A DNA stretch of 37,745 nucleotides. Origin: a virus. Taxonomy: Duplodnaviria > Heunggongvirae > Uroviricota > Caudoviricetes. Of the stretch, positions 24,329 through 33,260 are shown one piece after another. The stretch lies in IMG/VR virus record IMGVR_UViG_2541047874_000005. One strand, 5' to 3'. Each line of letters starts with the position of its first letter. Position 1 is the first letter of the stretch. The position numbers and the translations under genes are program-made. Under the pieces are notes generated by a model. The model was not told the DNA's origin. It saw nothing but the letters and a program-made list of their open reading frames with translations, and searched no databases.

Positions 24329-25081
24329 TTATCTTGTCACTTTTCTCAATTGTGTCTCTGCATATGCTTCTTCCTGCCAGCACTTTGTAACCAGTTTATC
24401 AATGACATCTGCATATCCTTTGTACCACTGATAATCCGTCAGATCCGGTACCAGCTTCTGGACATGATGCCGCGCCAGTGTGGTTGGTAAACGGCTAAAC
24501 CGGTTTCCATTGCAACGCCCACAAATCTTATAAACAGGCGCACCATGAAGCCGGGTTCTTTTTTCATCCAGTACAATACCTTTCCCCTTACACCCTCTGC
24601 ACGCTGTGCTGACCTCTCCCTTACCATGACAATGCTGACATAGTTCCTTCACCCACTCTTCCTTGATAACAGATTCCCCGCTTCTGGAGTGTTTCACCAC
24701 TTCGCGCAATACATTATGAAATCCAGTACCAGCACAATGCTCACAGCGAGCCTTACTTGCCGCAGACCTGGAATAATCAGCAAAGGCAAAATTCACAAGG
24801 TAAGGGATGATCTGTAACCGGGTTTCTTCACTCAATTTGTTCAATGTCGGGTTATCCAGTGCCATCGCGTAATTGAGCAGACCTTCAATCGCAAACTGAG
24901 GATCCTGAACACCAACTTTTGCCAGGAATAAGGCAAACCCAAGCGGTGCTTTCGACTGCACCATCCCCTGCGCAGCCATTACATCCGTAATTGTTAAACC
25001 ACCAGAGCCTGTCGCCGGTGCGTCATCGCTCAGTTTTGGAGATTTCGGGGAGTAATATTTCGGTAAGGCTTCAAGGTTCAT
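24329..25081 (-). CDS. Q: Late-gene antitermination protein Q
   Basis: About 250 aa from the ATG at 25081; multiple CxxC/HCH zinc-finger-like motifs; directly upstream of the late promoter/terminator and lysis genes. Confidence 0.75.
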   Translation of the reverse strand: MNLEALPKYYSPKSPKLSDDAPATGSGGLTITDVMAAQGMVQSKAPLGFALFLAKVGVQDPQFAIEGLLNYAMALDNPTLNKLSEETRLQIIPYLVNFAFADYSRSAASKARCEHCAGTGFHNVLREVVKHSRSGESVIKEEWVKELCQHCHGKGEVSTACRGCKGKGIVLDEKRTRLHGAPVYKICGRCNGNRFSRLPTTLARHHVQKLVPDLTDYQWYKGYADVIDKLVTKCWQEEAYAETQLRKVTR

Positions 25082-25094
25082 GCTCGTTCTCCAC

Positions 25095-26090
25095 TTACGC
25101 CAGCACGCCAATTGCCAGCGCACGATCGATAAAACGAAATATCAGCTCCAGCTGGGAGCCATACTTCTCTTCAAATGCCACGGTATCCGCATGCAGCTCG
25201 TCGTGATGCTTTCTGCACAAAGGCAACACAAAGAGGTCATGCGCTTTTGTACCCATTCCCCCCTGACCGTGGCCTATCAGGTGGTGGGGATCATCAGCTG
25301 GCTTTCCACAACATGCACACGGCTGTGTCTTAACCCAGCGCGTGTACTTTTCATTAACCCAGCGGCGACGTTTTGGGCGTAACATAAAAGACTCCGGCGA
25401 CTCCGGATCCACTTTCAGCGCCAGCACCTTTTTCGCTTTATCCTGGATAATGCTGGTGGCAGGAACCGAAGGAACAAGGTCACTCTCCCGGGTGACAGAC
25501 GGCACAACAGGCTTCGGTAATCTCAGTGCCTTACGGGCTGCACTTTCCGGTAAGGCATCCGCCAGGTCATTACGAACCAGCCACCAGCACAGTTCCGGCA
25601 TTGTCACAACGTGACTGTCATCAAAACCGAGATCACGGCGCACAACAGATAACACCCAGCGGGCACAGTTATCCGTTGCCATTGATTCCAGCCGTTCCGT
25701 GAACTGATCGCGCAACTGGTTATCGCAGTGCCAGCACAGACGGATTGCGCCCGGAGCGTGCCGCATTGTGGTCATGTTCTCGCTGTGCCAGTCGGAATGA
25801 GGCCACTGGCAGCCTTTTTCACGAAGTAACCAGCTTTCAAGACATTCCACGCCACCAGCACGACGGATCACTGCCTCATTGCGGAACACGGCCCGAACGG
25901 CAGGATCATCCGCCAGCGGTTGTGATGCCGCCGGAACGGCACCACTGGCGAAAGATGAATAACGTTCCGGCTCAGGCTCCAGCAGGACACGCCCCTGCAT
26001 AAACAGGGGCATCAGCTCTGAACCTGGCCTGAACAATACGATCCCCATACGCGGGGCAATTTCAGGGGTCAGTAGTGCTCTCACGGTCAC
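25095..26090 (-). CDS. DUF968-like prophage protein with C-terminal Cys/His cluster
   Basis: 331 aa; C-terminus CACCGK...HHLIGHGQGG...CRKHHDELH suggests a zinc-binding/HNH-like fold; recalled similarity to ydfU-type genes preceding Q. Confidence 0.55.
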   Translation of the reverse strand: MTVRALLTPEIAPRMGIVLFRPGSELMPLFMQGRVLLEPEPERYSSFASGAVPAASQPLADDPAVRAVFRNEAVIRRAGGVECLESWLLREKGCQWPHSDWHSENMTTMRHAPGAIRLCWHCDNQLRDQFTERLESMATDNCARWVLSVVRRDLGFDDSHVVTMPELCWWLVRNDLADALPESAARKALRLPKPVVPSVTRESDLVPSVPATSIIQDKAKKVLALKVDPESPESFMLRPKRRRWVNEKYTRWVKTQPCACCGKPADDPHHLIGHGQGGMGTKAHDLFVLPLCRKHHDELHADTVAFEEKYGSQLELIFRFIDRALAIGVLA

Positions 26091-29592: not shown

Positions 29593-29825
29593 GCTGCACC
29601 TCCGAGATGCTTCATGTTTTTTCCGGAGCGAAAGGCTATAAGCGGCATACTGACGCGGTAATTACGGCCCAGCGGTTCACAAACCACCTTCTGACATTCA
29701 CGGTCAACCAGGCTAACACGTAGAACATGCCCTGCAGGCGTGGTGTACCACTGCCCAACTGTAGGAATTGATGTTTTTTTACGCTGAAGTAAACGGCGAA
29801 TATTGAGGCTCAACAGATTAAGCAT
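29589..29825 (-). CDS. Small hypothetical protein
   Basis: 78 aa ORF with start/stop overlaps to both neighbours; basic. Confidence 0.4.
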   Translation of the reverse strand: MLNLLSLNIRRLLQRKKTSIPTVGQWYTTPAGHVLRVSLVDRECQKVVCEPLGRNYRVSMPLIAFRSGKNMKHLGGAA

Positions 29826-30654
29826 GACGATGCCCTCCGCTGATATTCAGGAGACGGTGAATATGAAAATTAGCCTTATCCGCCAGACGAATACGTTCAG
29901 CCTGCAAGTTAAGAAGGGTTTCTACCAAAACCTGATGCGCCTGCGGATCCGAAAGAGTTACCTTGCGCAGAGCACGTAGTGCAGTTGTTACATAACTGAG
30001 TTTATGTAAGTCTTCATCATTCAGACGAGTGAGGGCTGGGACAGTAGCCATGATGGCAGCCTCCTTGATCGGTGAAATACTTCCACCACCGGAAACGCCA
30101 ATTTCGCTGGTGGTGAACTGAACGGGGTTGGCGTAACCGGTGATCAAGGAAACCGGCGCATCTTTCGATGCCCCCGCCCAGCCCACCATAACTTTGATGT
30201 GAGCAAATGCGGACGATAAAAAAGACGCTGGCGCGTCATATATCGCCTTGATCAATTCCAGGACGCCAATCCCGGCACCCGCTTTATAAGGTGCCTGAAC
30301 AGTGTAACGTCCCGGAATGGCAGAATCAATGTGCTGGTGGTCCTTCACACTCAACAAAATCACGCCTGAATTTCCACAAAGGACTAAAGCACTCATGCGG
30401 GTAGTCTTTGCGAAGATAGATAACGCGCTGTGTTTCTGGCTCCCAACGAATAACATGAACATAAAGTCCTCTTCCGTCACGAAACCAGCGGTTAAGTTCC
30501 TGCACAACTCGCCCCCCACAGTCAGGTAAAGTTCTCTGTGGTTACTTACAGCCAGGTGATTTGGTAATCTGCATTCATGCCGTAACAACAGGTGTTCAGC
30601 GACACTGACCACCAGCTGTTGCGACAAACGGTTATTTGCCGTTAAACTGTTCAT
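29818..30654 (-). CDS. Hypothetical early protein
   Basis: 278 aa; between CII-like and replication genes; no Walker motif; no family recognised. Confidence 0.5.
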   Translation of the reverse strand: MNSLTANNRLSQQLVVSVAEHLLLRHECRLPNHLAVSNHRELYLTVGGELCRNLTAGFVTEEDFMFMLFVGSQKHSALSIFAKTTRMSALVLCGNSGVILLSVKDHQHIDSAIPGRYTVQAPYKAGAGIGVLELIKAIYDAPASFLSSAFAHIKVMVGWAGASKDAPVSLITGYANPVQFTTSEIGVSGGGSISPIKEAAIMATVPALTRLNDEDLHKLSYVTTALRALRKVTLSDPQAHQVLVETLLNLQAERIRLADKANFHIHRLLNISGGHRHA

Positions 30655-31536: not shown

Positions 31537-32211
31537 ATGAAAACAGTCCATGACATCCGGCGGTCTAACGCCAGAAAACTGAGAGATGGTGTTGGCGGGA
31601 ATTCTTCCTTTGCCACCATGATTGATCGCGAGCCAACCCAGACCAGCAGGTTTATGGGAGATGGTGCTACTAAAAATATCGGTGACAGCATGGCACGGCA
31701 CATCGAAAAATGTTTCGACCTGCCTGTCGGATGGCTTGATCAAGAACACCAGACAACAAACATCACAAAAAAACCTGATGTTTCAATTACTAACAAACAA
31801 ATAACGTTAGTCCCTGTCATATCATGGGTACAGGCCGGAGCATGGAAAGAAGTTGGCTATTCTGAGGTTGATTTGAGCACAGCAGAAACTTATCCCTGCC
31901 CTGTACCCTGTGGCGAAATGACTTATATCTTGCGGGTGATTGGTGATTCAATGATTGATGAGTACCGCCCGGGAGACATGATTTTTGTTGATCCCGAAGT
32001 CCCTGCCTGCCACGGTGACGACGTTATTGCATTGATGCACGATACAGGCGAAACCACCTTCAAGCGATTGATAGAAGATGGAACACAGCGTTATCTCAAA
32101 GCATTAAACCCAAACTGGCCTGAGCCTTACATTAAGATTAACGGTAATTGCTCTATAATTGGTACAGTAATTTTCTCAGGAAAACCAAGAAGATACAAAA
32201 TAAAGGCCTAA
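31537..32211 (+). CDS. cI: CI-type prophage repressor with S24 (LexA-like) autopeptidase domain
   Basis: 224 aa; C-terminal VIGDSM...GD...K and a QAG cleavage-site-like motif; N-terminal HTH-like region; divergent from cro. Confidence 0.85.
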   Translation: MKTVHDIRRSNARKLRDGVGGNSSFATMIDREPTQTSRFMGDGATKNIGDSMARHIEKCFDLPVGWLDQEHQTTNITKKPDVSITNKQITLVPVISWVQAGAWKEVGYSEVDLSTAETYPCPVPCGEMTYILRVIGDSMIDEYRPGDMIFVDPEVPACHGDDVIALMHDTGETTFKRLIEDGTQRYLKALNPNWPEPYIKINGNCSIIGTVIFSGKPRRYKIKA

Positions 32212-32222
32212 TCAATATTTAT

Positions 32223-32246
32223 AACCTGCTTCGGCAGGTTTTTTTA
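32223..32246 (+). terminator. Rho-independent terminator after cI
   Basis: ACCTGC-TTCG-GCAGGT hairpin followed by TTTTTTT. Confidence 0.7.
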
Positions 32247-32249
32247 TAC

Positions 32250-32286
32250 TTGACAATGTACCCTTGAGATACATAATGTATCTCAA
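32250..32286 (+). promoter_or_regulatory. PL-like early-left promoter with palindromic operator
   Basis: TTGACA (32250..32255), 16 nt spacer, CATAAT (32272..32277); perfect palindrome TTGAGATACAT-A-ATGTATCTCAA (32264..32286) overlapping the -10. Confidence 0.6.
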
Positions 32287-32760
32287 AGAAACATGCCACA
32301 GGCAAGATTAAACAAAATTTGGTTGTAACACGGCGTATGGCACATGCGTCGTTAGCGGTCTGGGGACGTTAAAGGGGACAATCCACTCCTTGCTCGGGCA
32401 AACAAACCAGGTAGCCGGAATGTGCAAGTCAATGATGATGCTGATAAGACGCCTAACCAGCGTGGCGGTTCGGTTTGACACCTGGGAAGAGACCAGGGTG
32501 CAACGATGAGGGCATTTATGGAACCGCGACAAAGTGTGGTGCCGTAACTGGCTAAGTGCTCTCAGCGTTGTGGTGAATGCGCAGGCTGATGCGCGAAAGA
32601 CATTGCAGCTAATGCGGAAAAGAGCTGTTCGGCGGGGCAATTAAACGCCCGTGAGAGTCTGAAATAACCGCAAGCCGGAGATCAGCACCGGTCACCACAA
32701 CAGCCACTGCTTTGGCGGTACCAGTTTGTACACTTGCTTCCGGCTGGTACCGTCCTTTTT
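32287..32760 (+). ncRNA. Candidate noncoding leader/sRNA from the PL-like promoter, ending in a DicF-like hairpin
   Basis: No ORF over 29 codons on + strand across about 450 nt after the promoter; terminal segment CTTTGGCGGTACCAGTTTGTAC resembles my recollection of the DicF core. Confidence 0.3.
32714..32760 (+). terminator. Strong intrinsic terminator hairpin (tL-like / sRNA 3' end)
   Basis: GGCGGTACCAG (32714..32724) pairs with CTGGTACCGTCC (32744..32755), 11 bp with one G.U, followed by TTTTT. Confidence 0.6.
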
Positions 32761-32897
32761 ACAAAACAGAGAAGAGCATCACCGGACGACGGGCTCATAA
32801 CCCAATCCATCCGGGCGGCTGCCACCGCAGGTGTTCTTCTCTGTTTTGTGGAGAAACTAATCGGCCTTGCAGGGTCGATATGATGAGGAGCAGCAAA

Positions 32898-33260
32898 ATG
32901 GCTAGCGAACGCAGTACTGATGTGCAGGCATTTATCGGGGAGCTGGACGGCGGCGTATTTGAAACCAAAATCGGCGCAGTTCTCAGTGAAGTCGCTTCCG
33001 GTGTGATGAACACGAAAACCAAAGGTAAGGTCTCACTCAACCTGGAAATCGAACCATTTGATGAGAACCGTGTGAAAATCAAACACAAACTCTCATATGT
33101 TCGCCCGACTAACCGCGGGAAAATTTCCGAAGAAGACACCACCGAAACGCCGATGTATGTCAATCGCGGTGGTCGCCTGACTATTCTGCAGGAAGACCAG
33201 GGACAATTACTGACTCTTGCCGGTGAACCTGACGGAAAACTCCGCGCAGCAGGTCATTAA
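32898..33260 (+). CDS. YfdP-like hypothetical protein
   Basis: 120 aa from ATG at 32898 (AGGAG RBS 7 nt upstream); same length and position as yfdP in the K-12 CPS-53 yfdPQRS cluster (recalled). Confidence 0.55.
   Translation: MASERSTDVQAFIGELDGGVFETKIGAVLSEVASGVMNTKTKGKVSLNLEIEPFDENRVKIKHKLSYVRPTNRGKISEEDTTETPMYVNRGGRLTILQEDQGQLLTLAGEPDGKLRAAGH

Follow-up and report, generated by a model that had tools for sequence, protein, structure and literature searches.

Which product is made from the long stretch without credible genes that follows the repressor-proximal early promoter of a temperate phage? We asked this for positions 32287 to 32760 of IMG/VR record IMGVR_UViG_2541047874_000005, whose 37,745 nucleotides, analysed as a whole and called the window below, are a complete temperate phage genome of the SfV/mEp460 type. 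An initial annotation, made from the letters alone, had described a near-consensus promoter behind a cI-like repressor gene, no credible gene before position 32898, no N-like antiterminator gene and, at the end of about 450 nucleotides of noncoding RNA, a terminator hairpin resembling the small RNA (sRNA) DicF. A prophage sRNA, a processed leader or an antitermination RNA substituting for N had been envisaged. The promoter indeed matches the sigma-70 consensus at 11 of 12 positions, with a predicted start at ~32284. The gene at 32898 is yfdP-like (phrog_204), and no N-like family occurs among the proteins of the PL operon. An untranslated structured RNA downstream of the PL-like promoter is likewise supported: no gene with family support precedes 32898, and the modules of the leader show covarying pairs. 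The best overall explanation, to which we assign a probability of roughly 0.55, is a modular untranslated precursor that would be processed to yield a scaffolded sRNA.

The published RNA of the locus

The specific RNA of this locus has already been published. Sun et al. (2020; Front Microbiol 11:574833, PMC7719688) described sRNA-17, a 193-nt RNA from an mEp460-like prophage of E. coli K1 RS218. They mapped it by rapid amplification of cDNA ends (RACE) and Northern blotting, and reported no Rfam homologue; the RNA accumulates in a lysogen of a prophage near-identical to ours. Their 18 primers and probes all fall within 32317-32896, 15 of them without mismatch, and the oligonucleotides for the full-length product, for RACE and for the Northern blot match 32566-32759 with 0 to 2 mismatches. 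The locus is identical, upstream of yfdP. The Northern probe and the nested 5′-RACE primers are antisense with respect to the + strand, whereas the 3′-RACE primers are sense. These orientations place the RNA on the yfdP (+) strand, both this strand and the RS218 gene orientation being deduced from primer design. The prediction of a prophage sRNA or processed leader is thus borne out by a RACE- and Northern-mapped RNA that ends at the terminator.

The 5′ end of sRNA-17 (C32566) lies one base before the closing stem of the element called module B below, within the long helix of cassette X, and the 3′ end is at the U-tract. Because it is placed beside the closing stem and inside the X helix, C32566 is most likely a processing site rather than a transcription start. 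No sigma-70-like promoter was seen within 32317-32566. The quantitative RT-PCR amplicon for sRNA-17 (32317-32712) measures 396 nt, twice the length of the intended RNA, and since it spans modules A, X and B, it implies a longer precursor. Sun et al. treat sRNA-17 as a stand-alone gene with an ArcA-controlled promoter, whereas here the upstream part consists of modules A and X. The "promoter" fragment of their ArcA gel shifts corresponds to 32317-32566, and their proposed ArcA site (GTTA, 12 nt, GTTA, ~32352-32371) falls inside conserved module A. In their mutant, only 32592-32709 is deleted. The paper mentions neither the DicF-like arm nor the STnc100-type scaffold, and neither the modular array nor its wide distribution.

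RNA modules of the leader and their relatives

Sensitive blastn searches against phage genomes split 32311-32900 into independently occurring blocks. The mosaic modules are common to P1, phiV10, SfIV, ST64B and phages of Klebsiella, Salmonella and Erwinia. They are named A, X and B in the order of transcription (Table 1).

In module B, the conserved elements are the 5′ end (GUUGUGGUGAAU), hairpin 1, hairpin 2 and the 3′ strand ((Y)CACCACAAC). The insert varies from ~40 to 270 nt and is completely different between phages. Among the first 126 instances examined, 95 distinct variants were found. We compared 53 variants of fixed length. In the closing stem, 10 of 12 changes were one-sided changes to G.U, one was a compensatory A-U and one a mismatch. 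Such one-sided changes to G.U preserve pairing only in an RNA that has the + strand sequence. Hairpin 2 showed five double compensatory changes and no mismatch in the same set, and a GCACA/UGUGC variant of hairpin 1 exists. Across 90 distinct copies taken from bacterial genomes, pairing at the three distal positions of the closing stem amounted to 96, 91 and 83%, as compared to 65, 54 and 47% in shuffled columns (maxima over 1000 shuffles, 80, 67 and 62%), with 4 to 5 pair types per position.

The two loops of module B are complementary over 5 bp, GCUGA with UCAGC. Loop-1 sequence GGCCGA is accompanied by UCGGC (copy L239) or ACGGC (L241), and GGUUGA by UCAAC (L245) or by the wobble-compatible UCAGC (L247); four loop-1 transversion variants each produce a single mismatch. 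As the loop-2 positions are invariant in the 53 canonical copies, the three exact compensations argue for a loop-loop (kissing) contact joining the hairpins.

Module A comprises a hairpin (32331-32351), an invariant core (CAGGUAGCCGGAAUGUGCAAG, 32408-32428) and a second hairpin, CCUGG-GAAGAGA-CCAGG (32481-32497). Using RNAalifold on 11 diverse copies, seven pairs with compensatory changes were obtained, in two hairpins, the first of which shows G-C to A-U exchanges. Elsewhere, module A lies between tRNA-Ile2 and ban in P1, immediately upstream of tRNA-Arg in phiV10, and in at least 120 viral contigs. Cassette X has a folding energy of -33.4 kcal/mol (z = -4.83; 0 of 200 shuffles fold equally well) and is a candidate RNase III substrate. 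At least 10 differing, fully complementary versions of its closing stem exist in other phages. The stem reached 10 pairs in 91 of 109 observed cases versus 47 of 109 shuffle controls; because this control is weak, the argument for X relies on the variety of stem sequences that are each fully complementary. Overall, the pairing changes indicate that the modules are RNA structures on the + strand.

T-arm-like hairpins (GGTTCGAnTCC) were noticed in some module B inserts (L269, L297, L332, L121) and X cassettes (L005, L007, L010). In two cases a D-arm-like hairpin is also present. ARAGORN calls none of them as a tRNA.

The exact 23-mer core of module B (GGTGAATGCGCAGGCTGATGCGC, 32572-32594) was found in more than 120 viral contigs among the matches listed, and in 102 species-representative genomes (L250-L351). 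The hosts are Enterobacterales, many Burkholderiales, other Gammaproteobacteria, some Alphaproteobacteria and a few metagenome-assembled genomes (MAGs) of other phyla. The 23-mer thus recurs in (pro)phage regions of widely separated hosts, among them Yersinia, Janthinobacterium, Pseudomonas and Pelagibacterium as well as MAGs labelled Geobacteraceae or Acidobacteriota, and the insert between the conserved ends is unrelated from one case to the next. The 40-nt 5′ core is present in very diverse phages of Klebsiella, Salmonella, Erwinia, Edwardsiella and Cronobacter. No single conserved protein family lies beside module B in the 102 genomes. The commonest neighbour is a cI/LexA-like repressor gene upstream on the same strand (17 of 102 loci), followed in frequency by recT-like, endolysin, yfdP/Q/R and exonuclease genes. 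A terminator-like hairpin occurs within 160 nt downstream in 38% of 190 distinct copies versus 19% in the upstream control. A tRNA lies within 500 nt of 14 of 127 module B copies, and a same-strand tRNA within that distance of 51 of 120 module A copies; all 65 tRNAs within 500 nt of a module are on the module's strand. Part of the leader region is carried by 2666 of 5426 complete E. coli genomes, about half of them, and yet in the 25 records listed of the 2921 matching E. coli records PGAP annotates only yfdP under the match.

SfIV and ST64B share the layout of cI, terminator, promoter, long leader and yfdP, the promoter being identical in SfIV. Both carry a sister subtype of module B having the 16-nt 5′ end (CGUUGUGGUGAAUGCG) and the 3′ end in common with the window. 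In these leaders the Rfam STnc100 model (RF02076, gathering threshold 47 bits) scores 38.4 bits (SfIV) and 35.1 bits (ST64B); it scores 34.4 bits in the Qin dicF-dicB spacer and 48 bits, as a full match, in the array of Klebsiella phage Madison. STnc100 and PasD are reported, in a 2026 preprint, as structural homologues and as abundant Hfq-bound prophage sRNAs, the Hfq association of PasD having been shown by RIL-seq (PMC13192938). The window has the STnc100 architecture, with closing helix UGGUGA/UCACCA, 5′-proximal and 3′-proximal hairpins and then the terminator. With STnc100 and PasD it shares the UGGUGA.../...CACCA helix, a hairpin right after the 5′ strand, another right before the 3′ strand, and a length of ~200 nt. 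However, the hairpin sequences of the window differ, and the 5-bp loop-loop complementarity is not evident in STnc100. Moreover, STnc100 and PasD are described near Q, stx and lysis genes rather than in a PL leader (PMC13192938, PMC12370729); STnc100 also sits downstream of stx2 (PMC12370729).

The C1-controlled ban operon of P1 (AF234172 68510-73694) is a mixed RNA/tRNA array. It contains a "dicF-like region", ~450 nt of untranslated RNA with an X-type helix, tRNA-Asn, tRNA-Thr, tciABC, tRNA-Ile2, module A and ban, and some P1 isolates have extra module B copies after tRNA-Thr. The P1 leader resembles that of the window by its repressor-controlled promoter, by module A (right after tRNA-Ile2), by the X-type helix and, in some isolates, by module B; it differs in that tciABC and real tRNA genes are scattered among the modules. 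In the literature searched, no function is assigned to the spacers of the ban operon and the module family is not described (searches covered the P1 dicF-like region, phage tRNA-adjacent RNAs and the core sequences as text). The structural class and its link to DicF and STnc100 appear to be undescribed there.

We propose the following model. An untranslated precursor of ~470 nt would be transcribed from the PL-like promoter up to the intrinsic terminator. Along it would be strung the RNA modules A, X and B, stably folded and each exchangeable independently of the others. RNase III or RNase E would generate the 5′ end of the 193-nt RNA, as suggested by the way in which DicF matures. Module B would serve as a conserved chassis for stability and handling, with its closing stem and its two hairpins locked by the loop-loop contact, while the hypervariable insert would supply specificity. 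The resulting sRNA would be a regulator acting in trans, much as STnc100 and PasD, its more distant relatives, appear to be with the help of Hfq. The terminator would also insulate yfdP...exo-xis from leaky transcription in the lysogen.

Several observations weigh against this model. Sun et al. read 32317-32566 as an ArcA-bound promoter, not as precursor RNA (PMC7719688), and an internal transcription start may exist before 32566. They report that yfdP is up 95-fold in a cassette-replacement mutant (PMC7719688); this rise and the sRNA-17 mutant phenotypes may be cis or polar effects. The STnc100 model finds no match in the window at E<=10, so that the putative link to STnc100 rests on the shared 16-nt 5′ end, the shared 3′ end and the identical position. 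Folding energies are unexceptional compared with shuffles (z -1.17 for the whole region, -1.5 and 0.1 for modules A and B) and thus uninformative, which is why covariation was needed. Finally, the near-exact conservation across bacterial classes would seem to exceed the needs of a stability scaffold and hints at a specific partner. If the proposed model holds, the published picture of sRNA-17 is corrected in three respects: the "promoter" would be upstream RNA, the 5′ end is probably a processing site, and the phenotypes may be polar. DicF, STnc100/PasD and sRNA-17 would become connected, all of them stemming from a single type of modular untranslated operon. A testable candidate chassis is also defined, with its covarying closing stem and a loop-loop contact backed by exact compensatory changes.

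The hint at a partner can be taken further. Tentatively, and at rather long odds, module B might represent a new pan-proteobacterial class of phage RNA, in which a loop-locked chassis with a near-invariant core and a hypervariable insert docks on a universal host machine. If so, the candidate partner would be RNA polymerase, giving N-less temperate phages a put-like, protein-free antitermination, or a tRNA- or RNA-handling enzyme. Module arrays and phage tRNAs would then form a "stable-RNA operon" heading early phage transcription, from which DicF, STnc100, PasD and sRNA-17 would all derive. This raises the question of what conserved partner keeps 23 nt of RNA unchanged between groups as far apart as Enterobacterales and Burkholderiales. 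The expression of exo and xis without N in phages of the SfV/ST64B/mEp460 type, for which the literature searched offers no answer, also becomes testable.

Table 1. Features of the leader and its surroundings (positions in the window)
Feature	Positions	Strand	Details
S24-type cI-like repressor gene	31537-32211	+	
Intrinsic terminator of the cI-like repressor gene	32223-32240	+	AACCTGCTTCGGCAGGTT then T-run; terminator annotated there in the Ayreon record
PL-like sigma-70 promoter	32250-32277	+	TTGACA (32250-32255), 16 nt, CATAAT (32272-32277)
Perfect 23-bp palindrome, operator-like	32264-32286	none	TTGAGATACAtaaTGTATCTCAA; overlaps the -10 hexamer; read from sequence
Spurious 110-codon open reading frame	32308-32640	-	annotated as hypothetical protein in some phage records
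Module A, structured RNA	32321-32504	+	closing stem GGUUGUAACAC / GUGCAAC
Cassette X, long irregular helix	32501-32570	+	closing stem CAACGAUGAGGGCA / UGCUCUCAGCGUUG
sRNA-17 (module B + linker + terminator)	32566-32759	+	primers of PMC7719688, supplementary Table S2
Module B scaffold	32567-32701	+	closing stem 32567-32576 / 32692-32701
Module B hairpin 1	32579-32594	+	GCGCA-GGCUGA-UGCGC
Module B variable insert	32595-32674	+	
Module B hairpin 2	32675-32691	+	CCGG-AGAUCAGCA-CCGG
Intrinsic terminator of the leader	32714-32760	+	13-bp stem, 15-nt loop, U5
Long helix in the yfdP 5′ untranslated region	32756-32855	+	ACAAAACAGAGAAGA (32761-32775) pairs with UCUUCUCUGUUUUGU (32835-32849)
yfdP-like gene, first protein gene of the early-left operon	32898-33260	+	phrog_204, E 1.2e-49; annotated as yfdP by PGAP in E. 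coli genomes

Alternative readings of the leader

The third possibility of the initial annotation, antitermination by RNA only, appears doubtful. The modules, especially B, would bind elongating RNA polymerase like the HK022 put RNA, and read-through of 32714-32760 and of downstream signals would replace N, exo and xis being expressed after induction. Such a mechanism would fit a PL operon without an N-like gene and with no other + strand promoter before yfdP, in which xis and exo must still be expressed through a good terminator. As with put, a cis-encoded structured RNA lies just past an early promoter in a lambdoid-type phage without N. Leaders of long operons are the typical setting of module B: the repressor gene is upstream on the same strand in the 17 loci mentioned above, recT, exo, yfdPQR or lysis genes are downstream, and the P1 ban/tRNA operon is a further case. 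Conservation of the 23-mer across proteobacterial classes also suggests a universal partner such as RNA polymerase. However, put is ~70 nt long, with two long stem-loops and no insert (PMC9378689), and blastn against the HK022 immunity region gave no significant match (best E 0.41, in IS903). No boxA with up to 3 mismatches was found in 32250-32900, the boxA search being otherwise at chance level. The abundant, stable 193-nt RNA ends at the terminator 12 nt past module B (PMC7719688), so that polymerase terminates there after having made B. The relatives STnc100 and PasD are free Hfq-bound sRNAs (PMC13192938).

SfIV, with its sister module, carries a perfect rrn-type boxA instead, which points to a Nus-factor solution, in SfIV at least. 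This boxA (GCTCTTTAACAA) lies at ~547-559 of the SfIV PL leader (L134), where a small open reading frame (ORF) resembling Qin YdfC was also recognized by eye (606-810). Both are absent from the window, and the comparison suggests differing read-through solutions within one phage group.

It is improbable that the modules are tRNA-like or Y-RNA-like decoys, co-transcribed with phage tRNAs and titrating or recruiting tRNA-handling or RNA-surveillance enzymes, or host anticodon-nuclease defences. The layout of module B is cloverleaf-like: a 2-nt linker separates a terminal helix of ~7 bp from hairpin 1, a variable region comes next, and hairpin 2 directly adjoins the 3′ strand. Its loop-loop contact would recall the D/T elbow, some inserts contain T-arm-like hairpins, and the modules adjoin genuine tRNAs, always on the same strand. 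Furthermore, GGUGAAUG (32572-32579), in the 5′ strand of the closing helix, is one mismatch away from GNCGAAN0-1G, proposed as the Ro60-binding motif of the bacterial YrlA Y RNAs (PMC4201824); this likeness is probably a coincidence. Against decoys, ARAGORN finds 0 tRNA genes in the window, the Rfam tRNA and YrlA models give no match there at E<=10, only 14 of the 127 module B copies are within 500 nt of a tRNA, and no protein neighbour is conserved. To our knowledge, E. coli K-12 has no Ro60, which also counts against such a role.

The terminal hairpin and its U5 are present as the initial annotation had described them, except that the stem comprises 13 bp, G.U pairs included, and not 11. The stem (32714-32726 with 32742-32754) is followed by one C and by U5 (32756-32760), and the hairpin has a dG of -21.3 kcal/mol (z = -2.97; 0 of 200 shuffles fold equally well). 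The 5′ arm and the first loop bases (32711-32731) resemble DicF. When 32200-32950 was compared by blastn with the 4 kb Qin dicBF locus, the top match fell on dicF in matching orientation (32711-32761 versus L003 2395-2441; 37/51 identical, with an E of 0.024, the search space being small). Within the 5′ arm, 20/21 positions agree (TTTGGCGGTAcCAGTTTgTAC versus TTTGGCGGTAtCAGTTT-TAC), whereas the remainder diverges. The position is also equivalent, since the hairpin, an intrinsic terminator, closes a long untranslated stretch of several modules in the PL-equivalent operon beside the repressor gene. In Qin, DicF is a linker plus terminator unit after a closed RNA module (L003 2252-2366, closing stem GUUGUGGC/GCUGCAAC), and an STnc100-like module comes after it; in both loci, such a module follows or precedes the unit. 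Closed modules of window-like layout were seen on both sides of DicF in this E. coli K-12 prophage (2252-2366 and 2433-2642).

We nevertheless consider it very unlikely that the window encodes a DicF orthologue, that is, a terminal hairpin RNA of ~50-60 nt that, once released, would stop cell division through base pairing with the ftsZ mRNA, as Qin DicF does. The near-identical 5′ arm, the equivalent position and the "dicF-like region" annotated in the homologous P1 ban leader speak for it. However, the Rfam DicF model (RF00039, gathering threshold 48 bits), which gives 76.7 bits on Qin dicF as a positive control, finds nothing in 32150-32950 even at E<=10. The loop is UUUGUACACUUGCUUCCGG here and UUUUACUCCGU in DicF, where it carries anti-Shine-Dalgarno bases, and the 3′ arm is re-paired differently. 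In DicF, it is the 3′ region that base-pairs with the ribosome-binding site of ftsZ (PMC5069750), and the bases engaged in this pairing are missing here. The predicted duplex with ftsZ (-80..+40) was no better than with shuffled RNA (0.67 as good or better), although this duplex prediction is a weak test, as it ignores intramolecular structure. The RNA found experimentally measures 193 nt (PMC7719688) instead of ~50 nt, and a 53-nt species is not known from this locus. SfIV has the same terminator hairpin as the window, and the hairpin plus yfdP leader block is found in SfIV-type phages, whereas the terminator at the equivalent spot in ST64B is unrelated. Thus, of the DicF likeness the 5′ arm and the position stand, whereas the covariance-model and target predictions do not support it. 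The resemblance is best read as real but local, possibly reflecting shared ancestry or the exchange of a "linker plus terminator" unit after such modules, and it does not indicate a common target.

The initial annotation had held that the lack of a significant Rfam hit would refute an sRNA here. Rfam returned nothing in 32287-32900, whether at gathering thresholds or at E<=10; because the family is absent from Rfam, this is a poor criterion. A real short protein-coding gene had been named as another refuting observation, and none was found in the gap by PHROG, substitution pattern or PGAP.

That the region encodes a protein, from a 110-codon minus-strand ORF overlooked initially or from a small plus-strand ORF, is hardly credible: the mEp460, Ayreon and cdtI records annotate hypothetical proteins in the region (in mEp460, from the 110-codon ORF) and this ORF is open in 19 close homologues, but its substitutions there (17/55/9 on codon positions 1/2/3) follow a non-coding pattern, it has no PHROG match, PGAP leaves it blank in the E. 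coli records listed, mosaic breakpoints cut through it, and RNA covariation explains the conservation. On the plus strand, the limit of 29 codons given initially was slightly low. With alternative starts, ORFs of 39 codons (TTG, 32390-32509), 36 codons (GTG) and 49 codons (TTG, 32734-32883) exist, and none has family support.

Layout of the locus

The authors of the phage Ayreon record annotate both a terminator and a promoter at positions equivalent to those behind the cI-like gene. Weak Rfam matches to STnc50 and STnc370 were rejected, as they reflect only the cI terminator on the opposite strand. Downstream of the leader, the PL operon encodes yfdP, yfdQ, an HD phosphatase, unknowns, an exonuclease and xis. 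The gene of a Q-like antiterminator lies far off, on the other arm (24329-25123, minus strand).

Between the terminator and yfdP, the minimum-energy fold of 32756-32900 (dG -61.4 kcal/mol) contains a helix of ~25 bp that can take in the U-tract of the terminator. A compensatory change in this helix is found in ST64B (AGAAAAG / CUUUUCU). The helix could be an RNase III site or a structure forming only upon read-through.

Two further Rfam matches lie back to back on the minus strand, the C4 antisense RNA at 30106-30193 (82 bits) and IsrK at 30218-30294 (64 bits). They fall within a 278-codon ORF (29818-30654), annotated in phage records as a protein or as an "immunity region", the upstream part of which may be spurious. 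The pair resembles the antirepressor control cassettes of the P1 immI / Gifsy-1 isrK type, in the PR operon.

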